Assembly: GCF_020734085.1 (NCBI RefSeq)
Contig: NZ_JAJAGH010000008.1
Location: forward strand, 5,743 to 69,742
DNA length: 64,000 nucleotides
Source: Hominibacterium faecale
Lineage (GTDB): Bacteria > Bacillota > Clostridia > Peptostreptococcales > Anaerovoracaceae
Direction of reading: 5' to 3'
A model generated the notes under the pieces. The model saw only the letters and a list, made by a program, of their open reading frames with translations. It ran no database searches and had not been told where the DNA came from. How positions within the stretch are numbered: the stretch's first letter is position 1; each line of letters starts with the position of its first letter. Positions 36,338-57,114 of this stretch are shown here, in pieces. Both the position numbers and the translations under genes were made by a program.

Positions 36338-36354
36338 ATGGGAGGAGGATTTAA

Positions 36355-37782: not shown

Positions 37783-37798
37783 TGGCATACAATTTGCA
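37783..37798 (+). promoter_or_regulatory. sigma-54 promoter TGGCATacaatTTGCA
   Basis: Canonical -24 GG / -12 GC spacing, about 127 nt upstream of the GAPDH start. Confidence 0.55.
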
Positions 37799-37924
37799 AT
37801 ATATTAAGGTCAGTATATTATCAACAAGGACTCGGAGGCGCCGTTAATGCAGCTTGCAGATCATGCCATCTGCGGAGCTTTAAAAAAGGTGATTCCGGAA
37901 ATGAGTGAACGAGGAGGAGAAACA

Positions 37925-38947
37925 ATGACGAATGTATTAGTGGTGGGTTATGGAACAATTGGACAGAGGCTTGCCGACGGGGTTAGTCTGCAGGACGATA
38001 TGAATCTGATTGGAGTTGTGGACGCGGCAATGAGTCTGTCGATCAGGGCCCTGAAAGAAAAAGGCATGCCATATGATCTTTATGCAGTAAACGAAACGTG
38101 CCGGGCCGAGCTTGCAGCAAACGGGATTCCAGTCCGCGGACTTTTGGAGGAAGCACTTGAGAAAACAGACATTGTATTGGATGCGACATCCGCAGGTGTT
38201 GGTGCGAAAAATAAAGAGCAATATAAAAAATATGGGGTTAAAGCGGTCTTCCAGGGCGGCGAGAAAAATGATGTGGCAGATGTGTTTTTTCACGGATATG
38301 CCAACTATGAAAAAGGCCTCCATGCGGATTTCCTAAAGCTGACATCCTGCAACACAACCGGATTGATCCGGGCAGTAGACTGCCTCGATAAAAAATGCGG
38401 GATTGAGAAGGTCGCGATTACCATTGTACGGAGAGTTGCGGACCCGGGAGATTACCACAGAGGATTGACCAATGCGCTGCAGGTTGACAAAGCGCCCAAT
38501 CATCAGGCACTGGATCTGATGACGATTTTGCCGGAAATTAAAGCGACCGGAATCCTGGTGCACGCACCGGTAACCCATGGACACTTTATTACCGTAGTGG
38601 CAACACCGAAGAGAGATATATCAGTGAAGGAGGCAATCGATACATTCAAAGAGCACAACCGTATTCGCATGGTCAGACTGGATGAAGGATTTCAGGGCAA
38701 TGCTTCAATCTTCAAATACGCAAGAGATCTTGGAAGGCCAAGAGGCGATCTGTATGAAATCTGCATCTGGGAGGACACCATCGTAAAATCTGGTAAGGAT
38801 ATTATGTTTGGAATACATATTCCACAGGAATCGGTAACCATTCCTGAGACGATTGATGCGATTCGTGCGGCAATGGCCATGGATACAGACGGAAAAACAG
38901 CGGTGGAAAAGACCAACAAGAATCTTGGCCTGGGAGGATGGAAATGA
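37925..38947 (+). CDS. type II (archaeal-type) glyceraldehyde-3-phosphate dehydrogenase family protein
   Basis: Start at MTNVLVVGYGTIGQR (GAGGAGGAG RBS). SCNTTGL catalytic-Cys motif and overall collinearity with archaeal GAPDH (for example Methanothermus) rather than bacterial GapA. Confidence 0.75.
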   Translation: MTNVLVVGYGTIGQRLADGVSLQDDMNLIGVVDAAMSLSIRALKEKGMPYDLYAVNETCRAELAANGIPVRGLLEEALEKTDIVLDATSAGVGAKNKEQYKKYGVKAVFQGGEKNDVADVFFHGYANYEKGLHADFLKLTSCNTTGLIRAVDCLDKKCGIEKVAITIVRRVADPGDYHRGLTNALQVDKAPNHQALDLMTILPEIKATGILVHAPVTHGHFITVVATPKRDISVKEAIDTFKEHNRIRMVRLDEGFQGNASIFKYARDLGRPRGDLYEICIWEDTIVKSGKDIMFGIHIPQESVTIPETIDAIRAAMAMDTDGKTAVEKTNKNLGLGGWK

Positions 38948-40188
38948 TTAAATGGAAAACAGTGGACGATTATGATTATCGGAACAAAGTGACCTTGCTG
39001 CGAGTGGACATCAACTCTCCAATCCACCCAGGTACGAAGAAAATTGTAAACGAAAACAGGATTCATAAAAGCGCGCCAACCATCCAGAAGCTGTTAGATA
39101 AAGGTACGAAGCTGGTGATCATCGCGCACCAGGGGGATACGCTGGATTACGAAAACCTGATCCCTATGGAAGAACATGCTCAAAAGTTGAATCAATATAT
39201 AAACGGGAGTATCCGCTATATTGATGATCCCTGCGGTCCGGCAGCACAGGAAGAAATCCGAAAGCTGAAGGCTGGAGAAGGACTTTTACTGGGAAACTTG
39301 CGCTATCTTACTGAAGAGACTTCAACCTTTGAGAATGTGGTAAAGCTAAAGCCAGAATTGATGGAACAGACCTACCTGGTACGATCCCTGCTTCCTTTAT
39401 GTGATTATTATGTCAACGACGCCTTTTCCGCAGCCCATAGAAATGCACCTTCCATGGCTGCATTCCAGAGGCTTCTTCCTACGGCAGCAGGCGAGCTGAT
39501 GTGCCGGGAAGTTGAAGCGCTGGATCAGATTATTGAATCTCCGGACCACCCATGTCTGTTTGTGTTAGGAGGTGCAAAGATTTCCGATGCCTTTGGCATG
39601 ATGAAGCAAGTTCTGGAAACAGGCAAAGCGGATAAAATTCTTACTTGCGGAGTTACAGGTGAAATTATGCTGATGGCGAAAGGCTATTCATTGGGAGAAA
39701 AAAAGGAATTATTTATCCGCGAGCGGGGACTGGACCGTTTCGTACAGGAGGCAAGGCAATATCTTGATAAATACCCACAAAAGATCGATTATCCAGTTGA
39801 TGTGGTGTATGAAAGAAGCGGGGAACGCTGTACGCTGGACATTGACGAATTGCCCAAGTCAGAACTGTTTATGGACATTGGAGAAAAAACGATTGAGCAC
39901 TATCGACGAGAAATCATACAAGCAAAAACCATTTTTGTAAACGGACCTGCAGGCGCTTATGAAAATCCGCTTTTTGAAAGAGGAACGAAAGAAGTCTGGG
40001 AAGCGATTGCAGCTGCAAAAGGCTATTCTGTCATCGGAGGCGGCGACACCGTCAGTGCGGCGCAGCGCTATATTAATCTGGATGATATTGGTTATGTCTG
40101 CACTGCAGGAGGTGCGATGGTGAGGTATGTATCCGGGACAAAACTGCCTTTAATCGAGGCCATGGACGGTGCACAATCAAAAGGTTAA
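38944..40188 (+). CDS. phosphoglycerate kinase family protein (archaeal-type)
   Basis: RVDINSPI, VNDAFSAAHR and GGAKISDAFGM / GGGDT PGK motifs. The ATGA start overlaps the GAPDH stop. Confidence 0.75.
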   Translation: MIKWKTVDDYDYRNKVTLLRVDINSPIHPGTKKIVNENRIHKSAPTIQKLLDKGTKLVIIAHQGDTLDYENLIPMEEHAQKLNQYINGSIRYIDDPCGPAAQEEIRKLKAGEGLLLGNLRYLTEETSTFENVVKLKPELMEQTYLVRSLLPLCDYYVNDAFSAAHRNAPSMAAFQRLLPTAAGELMCREVEALDQIIESPDHPCLFVLGGAKISDAFGMMKQVLETGKADKILTCGVTGEIMLMAKGYSLGEKKELFIRERGLDRFVQEARQYLDKYPQKIDYPVDVVYERSGERCTLDIDELPKSELFMDIGEKTIEHYRREIIQAKTIFVNGPAGAYENPLFERGTKEVWEAIAAAKGYSVIGGGDTVSAAQRYINLDDIGYVCTAGGAMVRYVSGTKLPLIEAMDGAQSKG

Positions 40189-40219
40189 AAGAACAGAGAT
40201 TCTGGGAAAGGAAAACAAA

Positions 40220-41287
40220 ATGAATACATATAAAATTGCAGTAATCGGCGGAGACGGCGTAGGACCGGAAGTTTGCAGGGAAGGAAAAAAGGTTCTGCAT
40301 AAAATTGCAGAGCTGGATAAGGGCATCGGATTTGAATTTGAGGATTTCCCCTGGGGATGTGAATATTATCTGGAGCATGGTGAAATGATGCCGCAGGATG
40401 CCCTGGAGACTCTAAAAAAATTTGATGCCGTTTACTTGGGAGCAGTTGGATTTCCGGGGGTACCGGACCATATTTCTTTGTGGGATATTCTGCTGAAAAT
40501 CAGAAAAGGGTTTGATCAATATATCAACCTGCGGCCGATCAAGCTGCTGAAAGGAGCCCCATGTCCGCTTGCAGGTGTAAAGCGCGAGCAGATTGACATG
40601 CTGGTTGTGCGGGAAAACAGCGAAGGCGAATATGCAGGAAGCGGAAGCTGGATGTACAAGGGAAAAATCAACGAAGTGGTGATACAGGACAGTGTTTTTT
40701 CCAGACTGGGATGTGAAAGGGTGATTCGCTATGCGTATGAATTAGCAAAAAAAGAGAAGAAAACATTGACAAGCATTAGCAAAGCCAATGCACTTAATTA
40801 CTCCATGGTATTTTGGGATCAGATTTTTGAAGAGGTCGGACGGGAATACCCGGATGTGGAAACCTACTCCTATCTGGTGGATGCGGCAAGCATGTTTTTT
40901 GTAAAAGAACCTGAGCGGTTTCAGATCGTAGTAACGTCCAATTTGTTCGGAGATATTCTCACCGATTTAGGGGCAGCGATTGCGGGAGGTATGGGACTTG
41001 CCGCAGGGGCAAATATCAATCCGGAAAGGCTCTATCCGTCCATGTTTGAGCCGATCCACGGATCTGCGCCCGACATTGCGGGAACCGGGCAGGCAAATCC
41101 CCTTGCAGCGGTCTGGTCAGTCAGCCAGATGATGGACTTTTTCGGTTATGAGGAATGGGGAAAACGCATATTGGATGCCATTGAACAGCTTCTTACAGAA
41201 AAAAAGAGCCTGCCACGCGACTTAGGAGGGAGTTCGACAACAGAAGCTGTCGGAAATGAAATTGTGCGGCTGCTGGAACGGGCGTAA
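40220..41287 (+). CDS. tartrate dehydrogenase / D-malate / 3-isopropylmalate dehydrogenase-family decarboxylating dehydrogenase
   Basis: Start at MNTYKIAVIGGDGVGPEV. NLFGDILTDLGA signature. 355 aa. Confidence 0.7.
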   Translation: MNTYKIAVIGGDGVGPEVCREGKKVLHKIAELDKGIGFEFEDFPWGCEYYLEHGEMMPQDALETLKKFDAVYLGAVGFPGVPDHISLWDILLKIRKGFDQYINLRPIKLLKGAPCPLAGVKREQIDMLVVRENSEGEYAGSGSWMYKGKINEVVIQDSVFSRLGCERVIRYAYELAKKEKKTLTSISKANALNYSMVFWDQIFEEVGREYPDVETYSYLVDAASMFFVKEPERFQIVVTSNLFGDILTDLGAAIAGGMGLAAGANINPERLYPSMFEPIHGSAPDIAGTGQANPLAAVWSVSQMMDFFGYEEWGKRILDAIEQLLTEKKSLPRDLGGSSTTEAVGNEIVRLLERA

Positions 41288-41342: not shown

Positions 41343-42425
41343 CTAAGAATAAAAGACCCGCTGAAAAAGCTGATGTCTTCCGCTGATATCCAATTTCTGA
41401 TAGATATTGGATACATGCTTTTTTACGGTAGGCATACTGATTTGACATTGCTCCATGATTTCCGTATTGCTGAGGCCGTTTACCAGATACTGGAGCACTT
41501 CGTATTCCCGGAGGGTCAGGTGATTGGTCTCTTTGATGGAAAGAAGGATATTGTCGATGATGGTGGAATAGTCGTAAACACAGCAGGAGAAGGTCTGGTC
41601 AGAATCGTTGTAGCTGACGTTGACGTAATAGGACTTATCTTCCAGGTTGATTTTACTGTGGGTTTTCAAAGTTTCAGACACTTTGGAAGCGCCTCGGGCC
41701 GAGATTTCCTGCTTTAGCGTCTCGCACATGGCAGTAAACATATTCCGGATCGTATCCAGAGAGAGCTGAGAATGCAGGCCGGTGGTAATATTGGAATGCA
41801 TGATGTTCAGATCCCGGTCGTAAACCATGTACACCAGAATATTATCGTGAGAAAACATAGTATATTTGCTTTTATCCAGATTATGCTTTGCCTCACAAAC
41901 ATCCTGAACGATTCTGGACAAGTGCAGTTTGAACATTTTGATCAATTCCAGATCCTGCGCGGTAAAATCCTCAGATTGCTTTGACCGATGCAGCCCAATG
42001 CCGCAGACATATCCACTGGGGGAATTTTCCACAAAGAGATTGCCCTCGATGGAATAATACATATTGCAGGGCTTGAGGCATTCTTTAAAATAGCGGGTTT
42101 TCTCCCGCTCAGAGCGGGTAAAAATCTCCGAGCTTTTGAAGATGATGGGCTGTTTCAAAGAAACGATAGGCAGAGCATCGTCCATGTCACAGACCTTGAA
42201 ATAATAGTTCAGATCCTTTCCCCATCCGGCAAAGATAAAATTTTCAAATCGAATGCTGTTCTGCCCTTTTTTAAAAATATAAATATCGCCTTTTTCAAAG
42301 AAGCAAAGTTTCTTTAGTTCTTCAAGAAAGTGCTGCAAAGCGTCGATTTTATTGTATGCAACATATAAATCCGAAATCATTTTGTTAAACGTATAAAATT
42401 CATTTTCATTAAAGGTAAATGCCAT
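41343..42425 (-). CDS. LuxR-family transcriptional regulator with large N-terminal sensor domain
   Basis: C-terminal GerE/LuxR HTH (LTLREYEVLQYLVNGLSNTEI...). Start at MAFTF (AGGAAA RBS). Divergent from the GRE operon. Confidence 0.7.
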   Translation of the reverse strand: MAFTFNENEFYTFNKMISDLYVAYNKIDALQHFLEELKKLCFFEKGDIYIFKKGQNSIRFENFIFAGWGKDLNYYFKVCDMDDALPIVSLKQPIIFKSSEIFTRSEREKTRYFKECLKPCNMYYSIEGNLFVENSPSGYVCGIGLHRSKQSEDFTAQDLELIKMFKLHLSRIVQDVCEAKHNLDKSKYTMFSHDNILVYMVYDRDLNIMHSNITTGLHSQLSLDTIRNMFTAMCETLKQEISARGASKVSETLKTHSKINLEDKSYYVNVSYNDSDQTFSCCVYDYSTIIDNILLSIKETNHLTLREYEVLQYLVNGLSNTEIMEQCQISMPTVKKHVSNIYQKLDISGRHQLFQRVFYS

Positions 42426-42643
42426 AATATTTCCTCTGCATAACATTTAGCAAAAACAGACTGTATATTTATTATATTTGATTGTATTTGAAAAGTAAAT
42501 GTTCAATTCGGCAAGGTATACCAACGGCTACCATGGAAAAAATCCTACTGCAGAACAATTGTCAGAAAACTTGATCGGGTATATAGTTAATCTATACTTG
42601 GAAAAGACAAGACAACGGATAAAATGACGAAGGAAGGGAGTGA

Positions 42644-42916
42644 AAGAAAACGAATATAAAATTTAGAGCAGCCAGCCCGGCGATTACAGACGGCAGGCTG
42701 GCTGACAGATATGGGAGCTGGTCCAGAGAAGCTGAAATCGCCTATGGTATCCCGCTTACATCTTTTCCCCTCCGGTGGGAAGGGGTACCTGCGGGCACAA
42801 AGAGCTATGCGGTCATCTTTATGGATAACGACAACGCAAAAGGGGAAGGATTTCCTTTTATACATTGGCTGGCCTGCAACATTCCGGGGGAAATGACCGA
42901 GCTTTACTACGGATAG
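42644..42916 (+). pseudogene. truncated PEBP/YbhB-family gene remnant (no start codon, premature stop)
   Basis: Frame encodes ...PLRWEGVPAGTKSYAVIFMDNDNAKGEGFPFIHWLACNIPG, which matches the N-terminal half of YbhB. It ends 9 codons later, 21 nt before the GRE start. No ATG/GTG/TTG upstream in frame. Confidence 0.45.
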
Positions 42917-42937: not shown

Positions 42938-45343
42938 ATGAACACAGAAAACAGAACTTTTTCTTTAGAAGGGGAAAACCATTTCCCCAGAATTGAAAAG
43001 CTGATCGAAGACTACAGAAAAGCCCGGCCCAGCGTAGATATCGAGCGGGCCAGAATCTATACCGAGTCTTTCAAAGAAACAGAAGGGGAAGACATCATTA
43101 CCAGACGGGCCCAGGCCTTCAAGGATTACTGCGAGAAAAGAGAGATACGGATTGCAGACCACCAGCTGATTGCAGGCGATGTCGCCAGAATCCCCAGGGC
43201 TGGAGTTGTAGACCCGGTGTTTCACTGCGGCTGGCTCAGCGAAGAACTGGACACCATTTCCACAAGAAAACAGGATCCCTATTTCATTTCGGAAGAGGAT
43301 AAAAAAGAACTGCGGGAAACCATTTTTCCATATTGGAAAGGCAAAATTGTCAGCGAACTCTGGCTCCGCCAAATCCCGCCTTATGTAAGAGAAATGGCCG
43401 TCAAGACCGGCATCATCGACGTGGAGATCAAAACTCAGAGCGCGGCCGGAGAGACAGCTCCTTACTGGGAAAAGGCCATGAATACCGGCCTGGGACAGAT
43501 GGAAAAGGAGCTTGCGGAGGCCATCGACGCTCTGGATCCGATTGATCCGGAAAGCTATGAAAAAATTACGTTTTATAAAGCCTGTAAGATGACCTTAGAA
43601 GGCTTAAAGCATTATATCCTGCGGTTTGCCGGTCTGGCTGAAGAGCAGGCCGATCAGGCGGCAGGCAAAAGAAAGGAGGAGCTGGAACGCATTGCTGCCA
43701 ACTGCCGCTATCTTTCAGATAACAAACCAAAAACCTTCTGGCAGGGGCTGCAGCTTACTTACTTCATCCTGGCAGGCTGCATGATGGAAGGCAACGGCCC
43801 TTCCTATTCGCCGGGAAGAATGGACCAGTATCTGTATCCTCTGTACGCAAAGGATATGGAAGAAGGAAGACTGACGGATGCACAGACGCTGGAGCTGATC
43901 GAGGCATTCTATGTAAAGACAGCGGAATCCACTTGGTTTCTCAGTGCAAATGCGGCCATGTACTTTGCGGGATATCAGCCGTTTCACAGCATTATCGTAG
44001 GCGGGATTGACAAGAGGGGAAAGGATGCGACCAACCAGCTGTCCTACCTGTTTATCACAGCTAAAATGGATGTACAGCTTCACAGCCCCTCTCTGTGCGC
44101 CCGGGTACACCAGCAGTCGCCAGAGGAGCTGATTGCCCACATCGCCAAACTGGCCAGACTGGGAACCGGATTTCCGGCTATCTATAACGATGAAGTCGCC
44201 ATTAAGATGATGCTGCTGTCCGGAGGAACGATGGAAGAGGCCAGAGACTATCAGATGGTTGGGTGTGTTGAGCCGTTTATGGGCGGCAAGATGGCCAAAT
44301 GGTCAGACGGCGGCCACTACAACTATGCGGCGGCCATGGAATTCGTTCTCCATAACGGAAGAAGCATTATCAATGAGAACAAGCTGCTGGGTTTGGAAAC
44401 AGGTGATCCACAGGACATGACTTACGATGAAATCAAAGATGCGGTGAAACAGCAGCTCAAATATATGATCGAGTCCATCAGCATCTGCGCCAATGTCAAT
44501 GAGAAGGTCTGCGCAGAGCTGACACCGTACCCGTTTATTTCCACATTCCTGGAAGGGACGTTACATACAGGAAAAGATCTGACCCGGGGTGGTGTGAAAT
44601 ATACCATCGGACCGGCGCTGATCGGCACAGGCATTGCAGATCTGGTTAACTCGCTTTCCGCAATTAAGAAGCACGTCTTTGATGATAAGACGATTACTAT
44701 GGGTGAGTTGATCCAGGCACTGAAAGCAAATTTTGATGGTTATGAAAAAATCCGTCTCATGCTGCAGAATACAACGCCGATGTACGGAAATGACATTGAA
44801 GAGGTGGATGCGCTGGCAGGAGAAATGACTGATTACGCCTACAGTGTGATTTCCCAGTGCAAATCCTGGAGAGGTCCGCACTTTATTTCCGGTCTGTACC
44901 CGGTATCCTCACATGTTCCCCACGGACTGGTGGTAGGCGCTCTGCCTTATGGGCGGCTTTCAGGAAAGGCCCTTGCGGACGGATGCTTCCCAAATGGCGG
45001 AACCGACCACGAAGGACCAACTTCCGTATTAAAATCGGTTTCCAGAATCAATCACGAAGTCCATACCTCGGGCACCCTGCTGAATATGAAACTGGACCCT
45101 CAAAGTGTTTCGGGAGATTTGGGAATCAAGCGGATTTCCGACATCATCCGTACATTTGTAGACTTGAATATCTATCACATTCAGTTCAATGTAGTGAGCC
45201 GTGAGCTGCTGCGAGCAGCGCAGGACAAACCGGAAGAACACAAATCACTGATCGTGCGAGTAGCCGGATATAGCGCCTACTTCACGGAACTTTGTGAAGA
45301 AATGCAGGACGACATCATCAACAGAACCATACATCAGGCTTAA
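42938..45343 (+). CDS. glycyl radical enzyme, glycerol/diol-dehydratase-like clade (substrate unknown)
   Basis: 801 aa. VGCVEP Cys-loop. C-terminal glycine radical motif RVAGYSAYF. Block-by-block similarity to C. butyricum glycerol dehydratase as recalled, but the NGHS active-site stretch reads NGPS here. Confidence 0.85.
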   Translation: MNTENRTFSLEGENHFPRIEKLIEDYRKARPSVDIERARIYTESFKETEGEDIITRRAQAFKDYCEKREIRIADHQLIAGDVARIPRAGVVDPVFHCGWLSEELDTISTRKQDPYFISEEDKKELRETIFPYWKGKIVSELWLRQIPPYVREMAVKTGIIDVEIKTQSAAGETAPYWEKAMNTGLGQMEKELAEAIDALDPIDPESYEKITFYKACKMTLEGLKHYILRFAGLAEEQADQAAGKRKEELERIAANCRYLSDNKPKTFWQGLQLTYFILAGCMMEGNGPSYSPGRMDQYLYPLYAKDMEEGRLTDAQTLELIEAFYVKTAESTWFLSANAAMYFAGYQPFHSIIVGGIDKRGKDATNQLSYLFITAKMDVQLHSPSLCARVHQQSPEELIAHIAKLARLGTGFPAIYNDEVAIKMMLLSGGTMEEARDYQMVGCVEPFMGGKMAKWSDGGHYNYAAAMEFVLHNGRSIINENKLLGLETGDPQDMTYDEIKDAVKQQLKYMIESISICANVNEKVCAELTPYPFISTFLEGTLHTGKDLTRGGVKYTIGPALIGTGIADLVNSLSAIKKHVFDDKTITMGELIQALKANFDGYEKIRLMLQNTTPMYGNDIEEVDALAGEMTDYAYSVISQCKSWRGPHFISGLYPVSSHVPHGLVVGALPYGRLSGKALADGCFPNGGTDHEGPTSVLKSVSRINHEVHTSGTLLNMKLDPQSVSGDLGIKRISDIIRTFVDLNIYHIQFNVVSRELLRAAQDKPEEHKSLIVRVAGYSAYFTELCEEMQDDIINRTIHQA

Positions 45344-45360
45344 ATACAGGAGATTTGTCA

Positions 45361-46269
45361 ATGAAGGAAAAACGGACAGGGATTATCTTTAATACGCAGA
45401 AATTTTCCATACATGACGGCGGCGGGATACGGACCCTGATTTTTATGAAGGGCTGCCCGCTGCGGTGTATCTGGTGCAGCAATCCGGAATCCCAGAGGCC
45501 GGAGCCGGAGATCACAGATGTAAAAACCAATTGTATTGGCTGCGGAGACTGCGTTTGTGTATGTCCGAAGGAGGCAGTCAATCCGTTGACCTTTCAGATT
45601 GACCGGGGCAAGTGCGATGCCTGCGGCCTGTGCGCGAAAAGCTGCTACGCACAGGCTAAAAAGCTGACCGGTCAGGTAGTGACTGTGGAGGAGCTGGTGA
45701 ATATCGCTGTAAAGGATCAGGTCATATACCGGAATTCAGGCGGCGGTGTGACGGTCGGAGGCGGCGAGCCTCTGACCCAGCCGGACTTCGTTTACGAGTT
45801 TCTCCGTGCCTGCAGCATGCGCAACATCCATACGGCCATTGAAACCTGCGGCTTTGGAGACTGGTCTGAGGTGGAAAAGGTTTTTCACCAGGCCGATCAG
45901 ATTTTATTTGATTTGAAATGCATGGATGAGGAAAAGCATCGGGCGTATACTGGCGTAAGTAATAAAAGCATCCTGCTCAACGCAGAAAAGGCGGCGGCCT
46001 CAGGCAAAGAGATCCGCTTTCGGGTCCCGGTGATCCCAGGGGTAAACGACGGGGAGAATATACGGCAAACCGGAGCGTTTGTCCGTGGGCTGCAGAGGCA
46101 AAACAGTCAGGTGAAGGTTGAACTGCTGCCTTATCATAATTTTGGAAAAGACAAGTATAAATGGCTCGGCAGAAAGTATGATCTGGAGCCTTTAGAGCGT
46201 ATGGAAAAAGAGGAGTTGGGCCGATATTACAAGGTGTTGGAAGAATTGGACTGTAATGTCGTATATTAA
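45361..46269 (+). CDS. glycyl radical enzyme activating protein (radical SAM, with two extra ferredoxin-like clusters)
   Basis: CPLRCIWCSNPES radical-SAM motif. CIGCGDCVCVCP and CDACGLCAKSC motifs. AGGAG RBS. ATG at 45361. Confidence 0.85.
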   Translation: MKEKRTGIIFNTQKFSIHDGGGIRTLIFMKGCPLRCIWCSNPESQRPEPEITDVKTNCIGCGDCVCVCPKEAVNPLTFQIDRGKCDACGLCAKSCYAQAKKLTGQVVTVEELVNIAVKDQVIYRNSGGGVTVGGGEPLTQPDFVYEFLRACSMRNIHTAIETCGFGDWSEVEKVFHQADQILFDLKCMDEEKHRAYTGVSNKSILLNAEKAAASGKEIRFRVPVIPGVNDGENIRQTGAFVRGLQRQNSQVKVELLPYHNFGKDKYKWLGRKYDLEPLERMEKEELGRYYKVLEELDCNVVY

Positions 46270-46272
46270 AAA

Positions 46273-46312
46273 AGGAGCCGGTCGCTGTGCATTCAGTGGC
46301 CGGCTCCTTTTG
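46273..46312. terminator. bidirectional terminator
   Basis: ggagccggtc...ggccggctcc stem with T-run, between convergent operons. Confidence 0.55.
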
Positions 46313-46401: not shown

Positions 46402-47478
46402 CTATTTCACATAGGTCTCCATTGGGCGGATCATATAGTTGAGAGGGCCCATCTTATCGGTCGTAACATAGCCTGGCTCGGAGTTCATGACATCCGGTAT
46501 CCGGTTAACAACGGAAGCACAGGTAATGGCTACGGTGTCCGGTTTCTTTAATACGAAGTCCTGGGTCGGTTCTCCGTAAAGGGTCCATTTGATCAAATCC
46601 TCTTCGCCGGGAGCATATACTTTTCCCACACACTCGGTTTCCAGCGTGATGCCTTCTTCTGTAGTGGTAATCACCGTAGCGGAGAGCCCGACTGCATGGC
46701 CGGCGGGGATTTCTGTCTGCAGAACATCGGACCATAACGGCTGATCGCAGGTCTGAGGGATGAATTTCTGTTCCTGTGTCTTTACAGTCAATCCCAGCAG
46801 GGAACAGATCCAGCCGTTGGCATTCCACATGTAGCATGGAAGGAAATCTTCTGTTTCCAGTACTTCCTGTCTCTTTTCCTCAGAAATATTATTAACAGCG
46901 GCAATGGTCTTTTCAAATTCATCCAGCGACAGGTTGACGCCATGAACCTTGGCCAGGGCAACTCCGTAATCTTCCGAATTATATACAACAGAGCCTTTAA
47001 TTTTGGTGACTTTATTGGATGCCCCGGCGATGGTGGAAATAATGTATCCCCAGCCCATGTCCTGTGCTCCGGTCCCGCAGATGGTACAGTTGTTCTTTTT
47101 TGCAAGCTCATCGATTTCCTTTGTCATCTTATAGCGGGAGTTCCATGGATAAAAGGCCTCTTCACATGTGGAGATGGCATTAATGCCCAATTCCGCGCAG
47201 AGAAGGAAGATGTCCTGACAGTCGGGGAGAAGGGCCATGGTTTCAACAATGCATACATCCGGCTTAGTCTGGGTGAGGATCTGGCGGGCATCCTTGGCGT
47301 AGCTGACTTTAACGCCCTTGTTTTCTGTGCCCATGATCTCGCCAATATCTTTGCCAAAGGCGCGGTCGGATTTACCAAAAGCGCAGACCACCTCGCCACC
47401 ATGGTCATAGACATACTTCATAGTTGGACCAGCCATTTTTCCACTTCCATACTGAGCAACTTTTACTTTACGATTCAT
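46402..47478 (-). CDS. DapB-fold NAD(P)-dependent oxidoreductase, probable amine dehydrogenase (2,4-diaminopentanoate dehydrogenase-like family)
   Basis: N-terminal Rossmann motif KVAQYGSGKMAG. Architecture recalls native amine dehydrogenases. AGGAGG RBS. Last gene of the dehydratase operon. Confidence 0.5.
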   Translation of the reverse strand: MNRKVKVAQYGSGKMAGPTMKYVYDHGGEVVCAFGKSDRAFGKDIGEIMGTENKGVKVSYAKDARQILTQTKPDVCIVETMALLPDCQDIFLLCAELGINAISTCEEAFYPWNSRYKMTKEIDELAKKNNCTICGTGAQDMGWGYIISTIAGASNKVTKIKGSVVYNSEDYGVALAKVHGVNLSLDEFEKTIAAVNNISEEKRQEVLETEDFLPCYMWNANGWICSLLGLTVKTQEQKFIPQTCDQPLWSDVLQTEIPAGHAVGLSATVITTTEEGITLETECVGKVYAPGEEDLIKWTLYGEPTQDFVLKKPDTVAITCASVVNRIPDVMNSEPGYVTTDKMGPLNYMIRPMETYVK

Positions 47479-47552
47479 TTTTTACCTCCTAAAATTTTCA
47501 CAATGATTGATATGTTGATACGGCAAAATCAGCCGATCTGGATAAACACAAG

Positions 47553-47897
47553 TTATAACGGATATAAGGGCAGCCCTTTCACGAGGCGGGCTGCATTTTG
47601 ACCAAAGATTCGCCCTTCCTTTTTCGTCAGAGCAGGCGGCCTCTTTTCCAGGATACAGGTCCCGGGCCCAGCCTTCTGATGCATGAGAAACACCTTCTCT
47701 TTTGATATTCCGATTGCAATGCCCACCTTGGAAGCCTGAGCTGAGCCAAAGGTGTGCTCGTTCAGAGCAGAGGCGGGCGCAAGGGTGCGGGTGCTGAACA
47801 AGCCTTCCTCCTCGATTCCGTACTCGATCTGCGTCACATAGCAGGATAGGGAGTCCTCGGTATAAAGCAGGTGGATTGCCGGGTATCGGTTATTCAT
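47553..47897 (-). CDS. diol/glycerol dehydratase reactivase small (beta) subunit
   Basis: Start at MNNRYPAIHLLY. EEEG and NAARLVKGLP blocks match DdrB/DhaG. Overlaps the alpha subunit stop by 8 nt. Confidence 0.7.
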   Translation of the reverse strand: MNNRYPAIHLLYTEDSLSCYVTQIEYGIEEEGLFSTRTLAPASALNEHTFGSAQASKVGIAIGISKEKVFLMHQKAGPGTCILEKRPPALTKKEGRIFGQNAARLVKGLPLYPL

Positions 47898-49782
47898 GGC
47901 CCCCTCCTTTTTGCGCTTTTGCTGCGCCATCTGGTTGGGGTGAAGACTTGCGGTCAAAGGCTTCTTCTTTCTGAAGGAATGCATAAAGCAGGCCGCTAGC
48001 AACCGCATTCCGCGGCCCCATGCACCCGCGAATATTGCCTTTCCCGCTGGTGATGCCATAGTAGGCCAAAACATCCGTCAGCATATTTGGGAGTTCAAAG
48101 TCCAGTGAAGAGCCACCGACCAGCACCACATGCTCGAATTCATGAAGGGTGCCTGTAGCAGAAACCTTCAACAATGCCCGAAGCACATTGTTGACAAAGA
48201 CCTTTCGTTTGATCTCTCTGCGGACGGAACGAACCTTTTCCAAAGAATGCCTGGTATTGATCGGCAGATATCCGTCCGGTTGAATGGACAAAAGTTTGGC
48301 GAAAAAGTCACTGTGGAGCGGCTCTTTGAAAAACTCCACACTTCCGTCTTCGTGGCGCAGGTGAAACAGGGACTCGGCTCTTGCCAGAGGATATTTTTTG
48401 ATGGCTTCCGCTTCTTCTCTGGAAGAAAGGCCCAGCTCTGCCTGGATCAGCTCGGTCACCATGTTGCCCGCGCCAGCCAGGTGGATGGTCTTTTTCTGGC
48501 CATCACTGTGAAGATAACAGGAATCCGTAGATCCGGCGCCAATATCAACAACCAGGATGGGCGTTCCGCTTCCCGGCGTCGTGAGGGTTCCAAGGACTGC
48601 CATATCTCCCTCGACACCGCCGATCTCCGTGGGGCAGCCGACTGTTTCCTCCAGTAGAGCCGCCAGGTGCTGCATGTGCAGCTTTTGGGTCTTTACCATG
48701 GCCGCGATGCCGACGGATTTTTCCATATAAAACTCATTGGCCAAGGAGCCGATCACATTTTGCGGCACCAAAGTGTCTACGGCCATCAGATCCTGAATAA
48801 AGATGGAATCTTCCGGCGTATCGGTGACTTGAGCCATCTTTTTGCGAACCGACTCCAGCATACCGCCGACATTCGTACCGCTGCTGCCGTGGACATCACG
48901 AATCGAACCGGCACGTTTCACCTGATCCATAATTTTTTGGGCACCGTCGTCCACGTTGACCCGGTACTGCTGCCTCTGTCCGTCGATGATGATTTCGCCC
49001 GCCGGGATGATCCGTTCATGGATGCTGCCGGAAGGCGTTTTGATGACAACGGCAGAGCGGTTGCCGATCAGCGCTTTGGCAATATGGATTACATGCTTTG
49101 TCTCCGCAGAAGAGAGAGAAAAGGCGGTCGCAATGCCATAGGGGTTGGTGAGAAAGTCGATCGACGCACCCGGCCTTGCCACCTCTACGGCACACAGATA
49201 ATCCACCGGAACCTTATCGATGAGGGAGACCTCATCCACGATGGGAAGGGTTTCCGAAAGCCGATTGCAGATCAGCACCCCGTCATCATTTTGGACGATC
49301 AGTCCTTTGATGGAATAACCATCTTCAATGGCCAGATTAACCTCCCTGGCTGCGGTAATAAAGTCGTGCTCCTCTGAAATAATAACGATATGCGGCTTTT
49401 GTTTATCTGCTGCGGGAAGATCCTCCAAAAATACGGTGTAGCCGATGCCAAGACCAAGGCCACCGGGAGTGTCCGGGTTGTGGCCAATCATGGCAGATTC
49501 GGTAATGACCGTCTGAGTGATCGTTTCCATGGCAAAATCACCGATCACAGGAGTTGCCTCGTTAATACGGATCAGATCCAGAGAAGACAGCGGGATATCC
49601 ATATCCGCACAGGCTTCTTTTAGAGAATTGATCATTCCGTAAAGGTTGTCTTTTGTACCTTTGATACCGGTTGTTTTTGTTATTCCGCTGGTGCAGCGAA
49701 GCAGCCGCCCATCCTGGATCTTGCCCAGAGCAGTTTCGGTGGTAGCATTTCCGATATCGATACCAGCTACATAAGTGATCAT
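47890..49782 (-). CDS. diol/glycerol dehydratase reactivase large (alpha) subunit
   Basis: MITYVAGIDIGNATTE N-terminus typical of DdrA/DhaF. 630 aa. Confidence 0.8.
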   Translation of the reverse strand: MITYVAGIDIGNATTETALGKIQDGRLLRCTSGITKTTGIKGTKDNLYGMINSLKEACADMDIPLSSLDLIRINEATPVIGDFAMETITQTVITESAMIGHNPDTPGGLGLGIGYTVFLEDLPAADKQKPHIVIISEEHDFITAAREVNLAIEDGYSIKGLIVQNDDGVLICNRLSETLPIVDEVSLIDKVPVDYLCAVEVARPGASIDFLTNPYGIATAFSLSSAETKHVIHIAKALIGNRSAVVIKTPSGSIHERIIPAGEIIIDGQRQQYRVNVDDGAQKIMDQVKRAGSIRDVHGSSGTNVGGMLESVRKKMAQVTDTPEDSIFIQDLMAVDTLVPQNVIGSLANEFYMEKSVGIAAMVKTQKLHMQHLAALLEETVGCPTEIGGVEGDMAVLGTLTTPGSGTPILVVDIGAGSTDSCYLHSDGQKKTIHLAGAGNMVTELIQAELGLSSREEAEAIKKYPLARAESLFHLRHEDGSVEFFKEPLHSDFFAKLLSIQPDGYLPINTRHSLEKVRSVRREIKRKVFVNNVLRALLKVSATGTLHEFEHVVLVGGSSLDFELPNMLTDVLAYYGITSGKGNIRGCMGPRNAVASGLLYAFLQKEEAFDRKSSPQPDGAAKAQKGGGHE

Positions 49783-49794
49783 AGGCTGCTCCTT

Positions 49795-50217
49795 TTACCG
49801 GTTGTGCTTGAGGCGGTTGCTGTCTTGCAGGATTTCGCCTGCCTCCCGGACGAACTGAGCGGTCTCAGCGGCTCCGTATTTGTTTTCCAAAGCATCGGCA
49901 ACCGCTAAAATGTCTTCCATTTCACTACGGAAAGGGCGAATAGTGTTATAGACTTCCAAAATATAGTCATCGGGAACATTGGTCAGCTCCGCCGCGCGCC
50001 GCAGATTGGCCGCAATCTGAATATCGCCTGCCGACTGGGCGATTTCGGCCTGCATCAGCAAGGTGTCCTTGTGGATCTTTCCGTCCTCCATTTTGACCGT
50101 CCCTGCCAGAACGTTTTCCATGGTCAGTTGGCCTATGGGTCTTCCGGACATGGCTTTCAGTTTGTCAGGGTGCTTTTCCAGGAGTGGATAATCGGTTTTG
50201 TAATTTAAGGTATTCAT
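49795..50217 (-). CDS. B12-dependent diol/glycerol dehydratase small (gamma) subunit
   Basis: DYPLLEKHPD and RRAAELTNVPDDYILEVYNTIRPFRS match PddC/DhaB3. Confidence 0.8.
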   Translation of the reverse strand: MNTLNYKTDYPLLEKHPDKLKAMSGRPIGQLTMENVLAGTVKMEDGKIHKDTLLMQAEIAQSAGDIQIAANLRRAAELTNVPDDYILEVYNTIRPFRSEMEDILAVADALENKYGAAETAQFVREAGEILQDSNRLKHNR

Positions 50218-50241
50218 GGGTTTTGCCGTTCCTTTCTGTAA

Positions 50242-52467
50242 TTATATAAAAGAGACTTCAAGCTCTACCGGTTTGATGTTTTTGATCTGAGCTGTTTCGT
50301 GGTTGTGAAGAAGGGTTGTTTTCAACATATAAAATCTCGTGCTGCTGTCGATATCGCCGGGAAGCGGTTCAGGGCTTTCCCCTTTTGCGTATTTGGCCGC
50401 ATTTTTTCCGATAGCCCGGTAGGTTTTTTTGTCATAAAGCGGCGACTGAGGGAAAAGCTCCAGATTGTCCAAAGGTACCAGATCTTTTTGATGGATCACC
50501 GTAGTCCCTCTTGACTGGATACCGATGCTGATGCCTGAGCCGCTCAGCCTGGAACCTGCGCTGCTGATTACAGCCAGATCAGAGGAGCTGTAGCATTTGA
50601 TAAAGCGCGGTTTCATGCCTTCCTCTTCGATGCCGGCAGCAAGCTCGCGGAGCACGATTTCATGGGGGAGGTCTACGATGGTCTTTCGCTGCTGCTGCCC
50701 AAAGCTTGGAGAAACTGCAATAACAACTTCATCTGGATTTGTACCAGGAGCGGCAGGGCCGCATTCGGTGATGCCATTGATGTAGGATTCATCCCTGGAG
50801 TCGATAAAGTCATCTGTGGAAACAGCGCCCATGTGCTGCTGCATCTGATCCCACCGCGCATCCGAGATCTGATAGCCGGTCGTCGGTCCGGCATAGTCGT
50901 TTTCGTTATTGATCGCGCTTATCACGTGGAAGTTTTCGTCAAAGATTGCAGAGGTGTGCAGATAGTCTCCTGCCACGCGCTGCTTGAGCATGGTCAGGAT
51001 GTTTTCTGCAAGCTCCTCGTATCCGGCCTGGTACAAAACCTTCACAATATCAAAACCATTAAAATCGCTTTCCATAATGTGGGTAGCCGCTTTTATGTCT
51101 TCTGCAACGTTTCTCTTTGGCATATCGGAAGATTTGTAGGCGTAAACAGCAGCCTCTACTTCTTCATCGGTGATCTCAGGAAAATCCATCGCGTAGAACA
51201 GTGCCTGCATAGCCTGGGCTGCTTTGCGGCGATGAGCAATTACCTCCTCATTGCTGACTGGATGCAGTGCTCCATCTACCTTCATATCGCGCTGAACCAT
51301 ATAATAGTTGGCGTAGTTATCGCAGTCCATGGTGCTGGCGGAGAAGGTGTTGTCGCAGTTGGGAATAGAGGCATACCCGGAGGTGACCAGATCGGTGCCG
51401 GGCAGCATCTGCATCAGTAGCTTGGACATGCTGCGAGCCAGAGAGTGGGAAAAATAGGTGTCGTTACCAGAGGCTACTTCCAGTCCCAGCATAGAGGTCA
51501 GCAGATTTTCTGCGGCAACAGCCCGAAGCCCTGAGGGCATGGACGAGGATAGGGGCAGTCCGTCGATAGAACCGTTCTGCGTGCCCTGGGAGCCGCCAGC
51601 TTTTACCATCCAGACACAGCGCGCTTCCAGATACAGCATGGATTTTCCTTCCGCATAGCCCATCATGACCTCAGAGCCGGTACCAGAGGAAAAACGCATT
51701 TTCATACCCCGGGCGGCGTAGGCGGATGCCAGGAAAGATTTTGACCAGGGAGTATCATCTCCGTCAGACATGACCGCCTCGGTACCATATACGGAAACGG
51801 TTTCTGCGTAAGAGGTGAAGCCCTTCATGCCGATCTTCAATTCGGTGGCTTCCTCCAGGGAACACTGGGTGATAACGCCTGGGCGGCCGACCTGGCTTCC
51901 GATCATCAGCGCAATCGCGTTGAGCGGTGCGCAGCGAGTCACACTGCAGGTAGTCTCCAGTTCGGCAAAACCGCGGAGGGCAGCTTCGGCGGCATCGGCA
52001 GCCATCAGTACCGGATTGTCCAGCAGGTTGGTCACATGGGCCTGATTGGCCGGACTTTTTCTGGCTCGCATTTTCATTTGTGCCATCATGATTTCCACAA
52101 CGTTCATTTTGCTGACCACATCGACCAGTTTGGCAGGAGTCAGGCCGGAGGCAATCTTCAAAAGGTCACGTCTTGAAACGTTGATATCTACCAGCATCTT
52201 TGCGATTTCCGCGGAATCAAGGGCCATAGAGGTTTCCGCCTCAGAGACATTGATTCCATATTTAACAATAAATTTGTCGATAAAGTCAAATTCATCCCTG
52301 GTTTTTCCATCCATCTCCACAATCTGGCCATCTATGATTTTAATGCTGGGGCGAGGGTCGTTGGGGCTGTCCAGTGCGACTAAACCGACTGCAGGATCCT
52401 CCCACGCGATAACATCTTGGGTTACAGGGGCCTGCTCATATTTTTGTCTTCGTTTTGTTGATTTCAT
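50242..52467 (-). CDS. B12-dependent diol/glycerol dehydratase, fused large+medium (alpha-beta) subunit
   Basis: 741 aa. SPNDPRPSIKI, QCSLEEATELKIGM, TSYAETVSVYGTE and GDDTPWSK are collinear with Klebsiella PddA. The C-terminal 190 aa (EVVIAVSPSFG...) is beta-subunit-like. Confidence 0.85.
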   Translation of the reverse strand: MKSTKRRQKYEQAPVTQDVIAWEDPAVGLVALDSPNDPRPSIKIIDGQIVEMDGKTRDEFDFIDKFIVKYGINVSEAETSMALDSAEIAKMLVDINVSRRDLLKIASGLTPAKLVDVVSKMNVVEIMMAQMKMRARKSPANQAHVTNLLDNPVLMAADAAEAALRGFAELETTCSVTRCAPLNAIALMIGSQVGRPGVITQCSLEEATELKIGMKGFTSYAETVSVYGTEAVMSDGDDTPWSKSFLASAYAARGMKMRFSSGTGSEVMMGYAEGKSMLYLEARCVWMVKAGGSQGTQNGSIDGLPLSSSMPSGLRAVAAENLLTSMLGLEVASGNDTYFSHSLARSMSKLLMQMLPGTDLVTSGYASIPNCDNTFSASTMDCDNYANYYMVQRDMKVDGALHPVSNEEVIAHRRKAAQAMQALFYAMDFPEITDEEVEAAVYAYKSSDMPKRNVAEDIKAATHIMESDFNGFDIVKVLYQAGYEELAENILTMLKQRVAGDYLHTSAIFDENFHVISAINNENDYAGPTTGYQISDARWDQMQQHMGAVSTDDFIDSRDESYINGITECGPAAPGTNPDEVVIAVSPSFGQQQRKTIVDLPHEIVLRELAAGIEEEGMKPRFIKCYSSSDLAVISSAGSRLSGSGISIGIQSRGTTVIHQKDLVPLDNLELFPQSPLYDKKTYRAIGKNAAKYAKGESPEPLPGDIDSSTRFYMLKTTLLHNHETAQIKNIKPVELEVSFI

Positions 52468-52620
52468 TTCCTACTCCTTTTCTACTTTGGTTTCTTTAAG
52501 AATCCCTGTGAGGACCATAAAAGTTTCCTCGTAACCTTATTTTAACATAAAGATTGCTCAATATTCTGAAAATTCTCCTGAGAAACGATGGGGACGAAAA
52601 TCTTTATGCTATTTAATAAA

Positions 52621-52635
52621 GCAAATTTTATGCCA
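52621..52635 (-). promoter_or_regulatory. sigma-54 promoter (minus strand: TGGCATaaaatTTGC)
   Basis: Plus strand reads GCAAattttaTGCCA. Lies about 155 nt upstream of the dehydratase start. Confidence 0.55.
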
Positions 52636-52758: not shown

Positions 52759-54195
52759 ATGGAAAAAAAACATTCAGAGAAAAGCAGTTCGCCATGTGAA
52801 ACATGCCGCCATTATGAAGAAAAACGAATGGATATCTTGTTCGAAGTTATGGATAATGAGAATGATGTGACCTTAGCGGACGGGAAGGGCGTTGTGCTGA
52901 GAGTCAGCGATTCCTACGAAGACCATTTCGGTCTGAAGAAAGAGGAAATTATAGGTAAAACCGTGTGGGAGCTGGAGGATATGGGGGTCTTTAAGCCGTC
53001 GGTAACTGCTGCTGTTTTGGAAAAGAAGAAAAACACCACCATTATGCAGAAGAACAAACAGGGGCGGGATGTACTGACTACTGGTGTTCCTGTTTTCGGA
53101 AAAGATGGAGAAATCGCATATGTAGTCAGCTTTAATTCGATTCATATTGCAGGCGTTACGAGCCTGCAGAGCCAATATGAACAGTTAAACACAATGATGC
53201 AAGCGTATAATCAGGAAATCAATAAGCTTCGATTAAGAGATTTGAGAGAAAAGAAATTTATCAAAAAGAGTAAGAGTATGGAAAATATCAGCGAATTGAT
53301 TTCGCAGATTGCGGATACAAACGCGTCCGTATTGATTACAGGAGAAACGGGTGTGGGAAAAAGTATGGTTGCCAAGCTCATTCATGAAAACAGCAACCGT
53401 TCAGAAGGCCCTTTTGTGGAGATCAACTGCGGGACAATTCCTGAAAATTTAATCGAATCCGAACTGTTCGGCTATGAAAAAGGATCCTTTACAGGAGCCA
53501 ACAGCAAAGGGAAAATAGGAAAAATAGAGCTGGCAAAAGGAGGAACTTTGTTCCTGGACGAAATCGGCGAAATCTCGCTCAATCTGCAAATTAAATTTCT
53601 GCAGGTCATACAGGAAAAATTGATAACAAGAGTAGGTGGACTTAGTAAAATCGAGGTGGATTTCCGTCTGATCACCGCGACGAACCGCGACCTGGAAGAC
53701 GATATTCATCGGGGGCTCTTTCGGGAGGATTTGTTTTATCGTCTGAATGTAATACCAATTCATATTCCGCCTCTGCGCGAACGCAGGGAAGATGTCCTGC
53801 CGTTGATTTTGAATGCTTTGGAACGGTTTAATTCTCAATATGGAAGACATATAAAATTGTCGGCAGATGCCCTTCAGATATTGGAACGGCAGACGTGGCC
53901 CGGGAACATCCGCCAGATAGAAAATCTGGTTGAACGGATGGTCGTTACTTCCAGGGGCGAGCTAATAAGGATAGAAGACCTGCCTGCTGACTTGGAATGG
54001 GAGACCATGCAGCAGACGCCGGAAACAACGGGACAGCTGAAAGAACGGCTAGAAAATTATGAACGCAACATCTTTATCGATGCCTTTAAGGAACATCAGT
54101 CAAGCGTAGCAGTGGGAAAAGCCTTGGGAATCAGTCAGACAACGGCTGCGAGAAAGCTGCGTAAGTATATTCCGGGATATGCAAATTTGAACTAG
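52759..54195 (+). CDS. sigma-54-dependent transcriptional activator (PAS, AAA+, HTH)
   Basis: GETGVGKS Walker A, GSFTGA, ESELFGYEKGSFTGA, C-terminal HTH. AGGAGG RBS. Confidence 0.85.
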   Translation: MEKKHSEKSSSPCETCRHYEEKRMDILFEVMDNENDVTLADGKGVVLRVSDSYEDHFGLKKEEIIGKTVWELEDMGVFKPSVTAAVLEKKKNTTIMQKNKQGRDVLTTGVPVFGKDGEIAYVVSFNSIHIAGVTSLQSQYEQLNTMMQAYNQEINKLRLRDLREKKFIKKSKSMENISELISQIADTNASVLITGETGVGKSMVAKLIHENSNRSEGPFVEINCGTIPENLIESELFGYEKGSFTGANSKGKIGKIELAKGGTLFLDEIGEISLNLQIKFLQVIQEKLITRVGGLSKIEVDFRLITATNRDLEDDIHRGLFREDLFYRLNVIPIHIPPLRERREDVLPLILNALERFNSQYGRHIKLSADALQILERQTWPGNIRQIENLVERMVVTSRGELIRIEDLPADLEWETMQQTPETTGQLKERLENYERNIFIDAFKEHQSSVAVGKALGISQTTAARKLRKYIPGYANLN

Positions 54196-54477: not shown

Positions 54478-54493
54478 TGGCGCGAACCTTGCA
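54478..54493 (+). promoter_or_regulatory. sigma-54 promoter TGGCGCgaaccTTGCA
   Basis: Canonical GG/GC spacing, about 60 nt upstream of the permease start. Confidence 0.55.
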
Positions 54494-57087: not shown

Positions 57088-57114
57088 AACTTGAATAGAT
57101 AAGGAGTGAAGGAC

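Follow-up and report, generated by a model that had tools for sequence, protein, structure and literature searches.

A fused B12-dependent diol dehydratase with a remodelled substrate pocket shares an operon with a native amine dehydrogenase homologue in Hominibacterium faecale

Contig NZ_JAJAGH010000008.1 of Hominibacterium faecale (assembly GCF_020734085.1) carries an operon in which a vitamin B12-dependent diol dehydratase is encoded together with a homologue of the native amine dehydrogenases. The 64,000-nucleotide (nt) stretch analysed, positions 5,743 to 69,742 of the contig, is called the window below. Identical copies of its 358- and 741-amino-acid proteins are recorded for Hominibacterium faecale / Ihubacter massiliensis, human gut anaerobes of the Anaerovoracaceae (Eubacteriales Family XIII). 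Five minus-strand genes of the window follow one another in the order fused alpha-beta dehydratase, gamma subunit, DdrA, DdrB and a 358-amino-acid (aa) amine dehydrogenase (AmDH), and genes for an activator and a permease lie on the opposite strand beyond the promoter. In window coordinates, the features of this region are:

52620..52635, minus strand: sigma-54 (-24/-12) promoter TGGCATAAAATTTGCT of the dehydratase operon, 152 nt 5' of the ATG at 52467
50242..52467, minus strand: fused alpha-beta adenosylcobalamin-dependent diol dehydratase homologue, 741 aa, with an Asp302 pocket (Pfam, NCBIfam and PDB alignment)
49795..50217, minus strand: gamma (small) subunit, 140 aa (PF02287, E 8e-46)
47890..49782, minus strand: DdrA/PduG-like large subunit of the reactivase, 630 aa (TIGR04491, 875.7 bits vs a cutoff of 400; PF08841, PF18427)
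47553..47897, minus strand: DdrB/PduH-like small subunit of the reactivase, about 114 aa from MNNRY (PF02288, E 2e-19 on the 173-aa open reading frame [ORF])
46402..47478, minus strand: native amine dehydrogenase family protein (G4-like), 358 aa, with an enlarged pocket (6IAU match)
46268..46307, minus strand: intrinsic terminator hairpin GGAGCCGG / CCGGCTCC followed by T6 at the operon end, read directly from the sequence
52759..54195, plus strand: divergent sigma-54 enhancer-binding activator (PAS, AAA+ and HTH; PF00158, PAS, HTH_50)
54478..54493, plus strand: second sigma-54 promoter TGGCGCGAACCTTGCA, 58 nt 5' of the permease start codon
54552..55925, plus strand: APC-family amino-acid/amine permease (PF00324, PF13520)

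In the fused protein, PF02286 covers residues 4-551 (E 4e-266) and PF02288 covers residues 587-699 (E 6e-31), and both chains of the diol dehydratase structure are matched (1DIO_A, E 7.5e-214; 1DIO_B, E 1e-55). The NCBIfam scores exceed the cutoffs for the large subunit (872.6 vs 788) and for the medium subunit (254.7 vs 248). Over its first 510 residues, the alpha part can be aligned gap-free with Klebsiella glycerol dehydratase, and the reading frame continues into the beta part with no stop codon between the two, indicating that the fusion is real. The Pfam, NCBIfam and 1DIO matches thus bear out the first-pass annotation of this DNA, which had described a Klebsiella-type alpha subunit with the beta subunit fused in frame. 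That annotation had also placed gamma and DdrA/DdrB-like reactivase genes 3' of the dehydratase, and the PF02287, TIGR04491 and PF02288 matches agree with it.

The gamma subunit lacks the N-terminal extension of PduE, and none of the NCBIfam small-subunit models reaches its cutoff on this protein (best, 166 bits vs 183). The reactivase has the two components expected of DdrAB/PduGH, a large-subunit equivalog and a small subunit with a beta-like fold. Within the ORF listed for DdrB (47553-48074), an ATG at 47897 overlaps the DdrA stop by 8 nt, and this overlap, along with orthologue lengths of 106-128 aa, makes 47897 the likely true start.

The sigma-54 promoter that had been noted ahead of the operon reads TGGCAT-N5-TTGCT, with the -24 GG and -12 GC correctly spaced. 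Its position is kept in a relative (locus L091, 81% identity; L numbers denote loci from other sources), in which the counterpart TGGCATGATTTTTGCT lies 135 nt 5' of the orthologous dehydratase gene and the divergent-activator arrangement is also present. The number of sigma-54 motifs in the window is not above chance (3 observed vs 1.9 expected); all three sites are intergenic, in the right orientation and 58-152 nt 5' of start codons, two of them flanking one sigma-54 activator gene and the third situated 3.4 kb 3' of another. The best NCBIfam match of the divergent activator, PrdR, scores 392 bits vs a cutoff of 795. As shared upstream activator sites, the two promoters flanking this gene offer merely short, unconvincing repeats, and the 140-nt leader of the dehydratase operon contains no riboswitch at Rfam gathering thresholds.

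The 74-bp gap between the DdrB and AmDH genes contains an AGGAGG ribosome-binding site and no terminator, and the hairpin that closes the operon had been overlooked by a simple scan because its loop is longer than 8 nt. The dehydratase-AmDH operon is real, and it probably gives rise to one sigma-54-dependent transcript. The adjacent activator is predicted to co-regulate the operon and the permease, the latter being the probable uptake component of the module.

The usual companions of such dehydratases are missing. Bacterial microcompartment (BMC) shell genes (PduA and PduN homologues) occur nowhere in the 64-kb window, as the earlier reading of the sequence had it, nor do dhaT, pduP or pduQ, and no iron-containing alcohol dehydrogenase (Fe-ADH) or aldehyde dehydrogenase is found among the annotated ORFs of the window. 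The locus resembles Klebsiella PddABC and DhaB123 with DdrAB (GdrAB) in having all three subunit folds and a two-subunit reactivase encoded alongside, but differs in that alpha and beta form one polypeptide, that the promoter is of the sigma-54 type, and that the partners are an amine dehydrogenase and an APC permease rather than dhaT, pduQ, pduP or shell genes.

The active site of the fused enzyme retains the Ca2+ ligands Q142, E171, E222, Q297 and S363, as well as the catalytic residues H144 and D336, and F375 (residue numbers are those of Klebsiella glycerol dehydratase, which are the same in the window protein). The surrounding pocket departs from the canonical residues at seven positions: Val to Cys at 174, Ser to Asp at 302, Cys to Gly at 303, Gln to Thr at 337, Thr to Tyr at 338, Tyr to Cys at 371 and Met to Thr at 374. 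Ser301 and Gln336 of Klebsiella diol dehydratase (numbered as in that enzyme) point towards the C3 hydroxyl of bound glycerol, and mutating them shifts the substrate range (PMC7674605); the window enzyme has Asp302 and Thr337 in their place, together with the five other changes.

Fused enzymes among 120 homologues of at least 51% identity fall into pocket classes: the canonical V-S-C-Q-T-Y-M, a Chloroflexi class with Ala337, a class with Asn302, and the class of the window enzyme. This last class (about 32 clusters) combines Cys174 and Asp302 with Gly or Ala at 303, with Thr at 337 in most members and with an aromatic side chain at 338 (Leu in one). Pdu-type loci with shell genes have the canonical pocket VSCQTYM. 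The alignments firmly indicate a dehydratase that keeps diol-dehydratase chemistry and whose C3 pocket is rebuilt, larger, acidic and clade-defining. With a larger, carboxylate-bearing C3 pocket of this kind, the substrate is probably neither glycerol nor 1,2-propanediol.

The last gene of the operon had been described as a DapB-fold enzyme resembling either native amine dehydrogenases (nat-AmDHs) or 2,4-diaminopentanoate dehydrogenase (Ord), and only the first of these resemblances stands. The protein matches CfusAmDH (6IAU) over residues 3-351 with 39% identity (E 1e-82), and it also matches MsmeAmDH (6IAQ) and MATOUAmDH2 (7R09). With these nat-AmDHs of ASMC group G4 (Elisee et al. 2024) it shares full-length homology and the catalytic Glu (P3), Trp (P8) and Tyr (P10, the G4 signature), the equivalents of Glu108, Trp145 and Tyr168. 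Ord is rejected at 105.3 bits vs a cutoff of 400 (NF040740, N-terminal half only). Identification as a true DapB, which would have overturned the description of the 358-aa protein, is rejected at 24.5 bits vs a cutoff of 122 (TIGR00036, N-terminal 80 residues only). What it has in common with Ord and DapB is an N-terminal Rossmann domain of the DapB type, matched in part over residues 5-193.

Unlike the characterised G4 enzymes, which have Phe, Tyr or Met at P5 and Phe or Tyr at 144, the window AmDH has Ala in place of Phe140 (P5) and Gly in place of Phe144, plus Val166, and it sits in a radical-enzyme operon. Small residues at P5 or P8, Ala at P5 among them, open the nat-AmDH pocket for C6-C10 substrates (Elisee et al., PMC11164908). 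In the same study, a NetSyn analysis of genomic context, presented for the G1 group, did not clearly reveal a metabolic function (PMC11164908). The resulting pocket, EAQGWVYNY, occurs only in the window AmDH and homologues of at least 67% identity, which form the island-linked clade, and these patterns point firmly to a specialised enlarged-pocket form exclusive to radical-enzyme islands. The common gut AmDH clade (about 57-61% identity) has the pocket EYQYWSYNY.

Genes of the common clade are placed between the D-Tyr-tRNA deacylase gene (dtd) and a Na/Ca exchanger gene (L001-L003, 10001-11077, 58% identity) and near ribosomal, SecY and plsY/gpsA genes, a housekeeping-like context unrelated to radical enzymes.

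The distribution of the Asp302 pocket was followed by scanning JGI metagenome contigs with a DNA pattern encoding G-x-Q-G-x-Q-N-G-x-I-D, which returned at least 120 stretches; among the 120 listed, about 115 are true dehydratase homologues (41-53% identity). The top matches of a profile made from Asp302 sequences all have Asp at 302 (3 with Glu), and they include Mesorhizobium, Rhodobacteraceae, Pseudoxanthobacter, Mycolicibacterium and Streptosporangiaceae. In cultured-genome contigs, the matches listed for an alignment of the clade are mostly canonical enzymes and do not include the source species, so that the cultured-genome statistics are weak. All 99 Asp302 sequences that span the junction are alpha-beta fusions; fusion was nevertheless rejected as a distinctive trait, as 39 of 78 loci with the Ser302 pocket are fused as well.

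Neighbouring ORFs were clustered, representatives were annotated by Pfam, and occurrences were counted by tblastn. The Asp302 loci (n = 122; median, 6 kb) exceed the Ser302 loci (n = 78; median, 22 kb) in the incidence of APC permeases (16% vs 0%), class-III aminotransferases (16% vs 5%), APH kinases (17% vs 0%) and SDR proteins (32% vs 10%). Any amine-handling gene, counted as an APC permease, class-III aminotransferase, APH kinase or AmDH, is present in 41 of 122 Asp302 loci (34%) and 4 of 78 Ser302 loci (5%) (Fisher P = 7e-7, uncorrected for phylogeny or source). The gene neighbourhoods firmly suggest that the Asp302 clade, and this island especially, is embedded in amine and amino-alcohol catabolic gene sets.

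Ten Asp302-type loci contain BMC-H and BMC-P genes, nine of them of the Leu/Gln338 subtype, and for this reason they look like RMM2 loci; one further cluster representative, c14, was rejected as BMC-like since it has no Pfam match. RMM2 loci are amino-alcohol loci that contain diol dehydratase homologues (Axen et al. 2014, PMC4207490), and their BMC has been proposed either not to use the dehydratase genes or to be bifunctional (PMC4207490). The environmental loci found here (the reference Mycobacterium and Rhodococcus RMM2 genomes entering the comparison by published description) share with the window a fused alpha-beta subunit that has Asp302 and a small side chain at 303, and they encode a permease and amine-handling enzymes beside it. 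They differ in holding a BMC shell, an APH kinase, a class-III aminotransferase/phospholyase and an SDR, none of which adjoins the window operon. Their dehydratases, 42-50% identical to the window protein, have the pocket Asp302/Ala337/Leu338, as opposed to Thr337/Tyr338 in the window.

Seven independent loci with dehydratases of the same type as the window enzyme were compared. Reactivase genes accompany all seven, an APC permease five, a YbhB/PEBP gene five and an AmDH four, and several carry DUF3156, sigma-54 activators or sigma-54 promoters. The AmDH gene itself is found in four arrangements, in two of which it follows a glycyl-radical enzyme (GRE):

Window: alpha-beta, gamma, DdrA, DdrB, AmDH
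L091: alpha-beta, gamma, DdrA, DdrB, PEBP-family protein (PBP), AmDH, next to a gamma-aminobutyrate (GABA)-transaminase-like aminotransferase and a sigma-54 activator
L009 and L010: GerE, GRE, activase, AmDH, convergent on the dehydratase operon
L216: a GerE-GRE-activase-AmDH island without any B12 dehydratase

On their other side, L009 and L010 have genes for a GbsB/lactaldehyde-reductase-like Fe-ADH, a DUF3156 protein, an SDR and an APC permease, and L010 additionally has a molybdenum aldehyde oxidoreductase beside the island. The island partners of the relatives (the GbsB-like Fe-ADH, the GABA-transaminase-like aminotransferase, and GREs closest to CutC and HpyG) fit cationic alcohols or amines. 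Because the AmDH stands behind a GRE in relatives, and one island has no B12 enzyme, the AmDH belongs to a wider amine-catabolic island and not strictly to the dehydratase. A universal AmDH-dehydratase linkage is rejected, given that the common AmDH clade occurs elsewhere and that fused dehydratases of 55-68% identity occur without an AmDH.

Two side observations concern these islands. The island of L216 is otherwise collinear with those of L009 and L010, but an AAA-ATPase-like/PDDEXK_9 gene (11342-13042) stands where they have the B12 dehydratase cassette, suggesting that gain or loss affects the cassette as a whole. DUF3156 proteins of about 200-230 aa (L009, 2212-2829; L007, 6829-7521; L093, 6849-7529; L216, 14590-15189) are encoded adjacent to or near the APC permease by dehydratases of the window type or their island, and nothing on the function of DUF3156 was found in the searchable literature.

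The reading that we favour, with middling confidence and from sequence comparison, is that of a sigma-54-controlled catabolic module in which the Asp302 dehydratase would act on a larger amine-bearing or amine-derived diol and the AmDH on the adjoining C=O or C=N chemistry. The substrate, as a best guess a cationic diol or amino alcohol larger than C3 that carries or derives from an amino group, would enter through the co-regulated APC permease. Radical chemistry would proceed as in diol dehydratase, by hydrogen abstraction, migration of a hydroxyl on the Ca2+-bound vicinal diol and collapse to an aldehyde. In the simplest order, the amino-aldehyde or cyclic imine so formed would then be reduced or aminated by the AmDH at the expense of NAD(P)H; in the alternative order, the AmDH would act earlier: it would oxidatively deaminate an amino alcohol upstream of the diol.

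We infer the direction of the AmDH step, favouring the downstream position, because the window and L091 operons have no other oxidoreductase and because, elsewhere, the AmDH gene stands behind those of GRE dehydratases with relatives known to work alongside imine reductases. A related Anaerovorax ferments putrescine. From this habit, and from the GABA-transaminase-like and Fe-ADH partners, come guesses at candidate substrates: a diol derived from 5-hydroxylysine, hydroxylated polyamines, aminopropanediol and aminopropanol.

Several observations weigh against this favoured reading. The link between AmDH and dehydratase is confined to about four related Anaerovoracaceae-like lineages; L005-L007 and L093 carry the dehydratase but no AmDH, and L216 and L004 have an AmDH and GRE with no B12 enzyme within 10 kb. 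The enrichment statistic for amine-handling genes is inflated, since most Asp302 loci are short metagenome fragments that are not phylogenetically independent. NCBIfam places the large subunit, above cutoff, in the propanediol/glycerol family, and the window lacks the aldehyde or alcohol dehydrogenase that the route with AmDH upstream would call for. In addition, an alphaproteobacterial subtype has Arg338 alongside Asp302 (L215 together with 32 metagenome loci, e.g., L113, L141 and L144); neither an APC permease nor a reactivase is nearby in any of the 32 (0/32), and in Mesorhizobium L215, the one genome locus of this subtype looked at closely, the dehydratase gene lies 3' of a CUT1 sugar-type ABC transporter and 5' of an SDR gene. 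Asp302 alone is therefore no proof of an ammonium-binding site, and its standing as such was downgraded on account of this subtype beside a sugar-type transporter. The Asp302/Arg338 subtype may have a different substrate class or reactivation strategy.

The suggestion of the first-pass annotation that the substrate contains an amine, or that an amination step is involved, thus retains the backing of the C3-pocket changes, the gene associations of the Asp302 clade and the AmDH pocket, and loses that of a strict tie between AmDH and dehydratase.

The GRE genes bear directly on the alternatives, and the window has its own, next to the operon:

42938..46269, plus strand: uncharacterised glycyl-radical 1,2-eliminase (801 aa) and its activase, convergent with the operon (GCVEP, RVAGY; CX3CX2C in the activase)
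42644..42916, plus strand: truncated, frameshifted YbhB/PEBP (PF01161) remnant (tblastn, 47% identity to residues 3-75 of the L007 PBP)
41343..42446, minus strand: LuxR/GerE-type regulator (PF00196)

The best PDB matches of the window GRE are HpyG (8ID1), CutC and HpzG, and it reaches none of the NCBIfam equivalog cutoffs. The substrates of HpyG (the N-methyl-hydroxyproline dehydratase), CutC and HpzG are all alcohols that bear an amine. The LuxR/GerE regulator travels with the GRE module, adjoining a GRE in L009, L010, L091 and L216. The YbhB/PEBP remnant lies directly 5' of the window GRE, and an intact PBP is encoded in or beside the operons of the window type in L005, L007, L091 and L093. 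The related islands L004, L009 and L091 hold two or three such GREs.

It is possible, though we think it unlikely, that the AmDH is the partner of the glycyl-radical eliminase, serving, for example, as reductase of an imine or aldehyde that a CutC/HpyG-like GRE would make, and that the B12 dehydratase is an optional mobile cassette whose co-transcription is a by-product of rearrangement. GerE, GRE, activase and AmDH genes follow one another on one strand in L009, L010 and L216 (with only GRE, activase and AmDH in L217, a short contig), L216 presents the complete island and no B12 dehydratase, the AmDH of L004 is accompanied by GREs alone, and in the window the GRE and activase genes directly adjoin that of the AmDH and converge on it. 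Imine reductases are the partners known for GREs of the HypD/HpyG type, which also counts in its favour. A scheme of this pairing is given in PMC13450708. Against such a partnership, the AmDH of the window and of L091 lies in the transcription unit of the dehydratase and not in that of the GRE, and the window GRE is merely 38% identical to the one that precedes the AmDH in L009 and L010. In L009, the homologue most like it (54% identity) itself shares an operon with the B12 dehydratase, arguing that the two modules are intertwined rather than independent.

An ordinary glycerol or 1,2-propanediol operon, like dha or pdu without a microcompartment, in which the aldehyde is handled elsewhere and the AmDH is a passenger, is a distinctly unlikely explanation. 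It would account for the complete set of catalytic residues and the above-cutoff NCBIfam propanediol/glycerol matches, for the many fused dehydratases that stand alone with just a reactivase (L005, L008), and for AmDH homologues of about 58-60% identity in unrelated contexts. It does not sit well with a C3 pocket altered at 5-7 positions, the changes being kept clade-wide, or with a 64-kb window in which dhaT, pduP, pduQ and shell genes were not found. A passenger is also hard to reconcile with an AmDH gene that has a ribosome-binding site and a terminator after but not before it, that persists through four gene arrangements (near the dehydratase in the window, L091, L009 and L010), and whose pocket variant co-varies with island membership.

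A third alternative would make the Asp302 protein a B12 enzyme of the ammonia-lyase type that works directly on a vicinal amino alcohol, such as 1-amino-2-propanol or 5-hydroxylysine, as an ATP-independent alternative to the kinase/phospholyase route. It would suit the acidic residue introduced into the pocket and the tie of the clade to RMM2-like loci with an amino-alcohol kinase, phospholyase-like aminotransferase, SDR and permease. It is improbable, as none of the five Ca2+ ligands responsible for binding the two hydroxyls varies, arguing for a true diol substrate, and position 302 faces C3, not the O1/O2 sites (PMC7674605).

Elsewhere in the window, a third sigma-54 promoter (TGGCATACAATTTGCA, at 37783) heads an operon within 37783-41287 (plus strand) that encodes an archaeal-type (type II) GAPDH (NF003251, 397 bits vs 185), a PGK-like protein and a tartrate dehydrogenase (TIGR02089, 488 vs 470), a trio unusual for a Firmicute. 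Upstream of it (33016-37491) are a second sigma-54 activator, an Amidohydro_3 protein and an MFS transporter. About 20 kb from the CutC/HpyG-like GRE, genes for an ABC transporter of the glycine-betaine/choline type (OpuAC binding protein, permease and ATPase; 21230-23520, plus strand) offer a possible link to quaternary amines. A tetrahydrofolate (THF) riboswitch (4486-4590, plus strand, 88.7 bits) lies 5' of a folate cluster of GTP cyclohydrolase I, dihydropteroate synthase and FolB-HPPK, and a PemK/MazF-type toxin gene (57106-57477, plus strand) lies just 3' of an NAD(P)H-hydrate dehydratase gene.

Fused diol dehydratases, their reactivases, native AmDHs and RMM2 loci with unexplained dehydratase genes are already known. 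The searchable literature contains no report of the Asp302 pocket signature or of its link to amine-handling neighbourhoods, nor any that pairs a nat-AmDH operonically with a radical or diol dehydratase, or AAUM with a diol dehydratase. B12 diol dehydratases are usually annotated uniformly as glycerol or propanediol enzymes, and the combination of Asp302 and fused alpha-beta subunits sets apart a large clade, whose recognition would alter annotation in many gut, soil and actinobacterial genomes.

More broadly, and only tentatively, the always-fused Asp302 dehydratases might constitute a distinct, hitherto unrecognised class of B12 radical enzymes acting on amine-bearing vicinal diols or vicinal amino alcohols, candidates again being the 5-hydroxylysine-derived diol, a hydroxylated polyamine or aminopropanediol. 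The enlarged-pocket nat-AmDH would be their physiological partner and would reduce or aminate the amino-aldehyde or cyclic imine that they form. Were this doubtful generalisation true, it would supply a first natural role for the nat-AmDH family and explain the orphan diol dehydratase genes of RMM2 loci, for which the Asp302 clade already offers a testable explanation. The operon provides a first genomic clue to the cellular role of native amine dehydrogenases. These enzymes are prized in biocatalysis, and the placement of one after an aldehyde-forming radical enzyme gives both a physiological hypothesis and a new scaffold. Since the host is an amino-acid fermenter of the human gut, the pathway may matter for how amines from the host or the diet are turned over.

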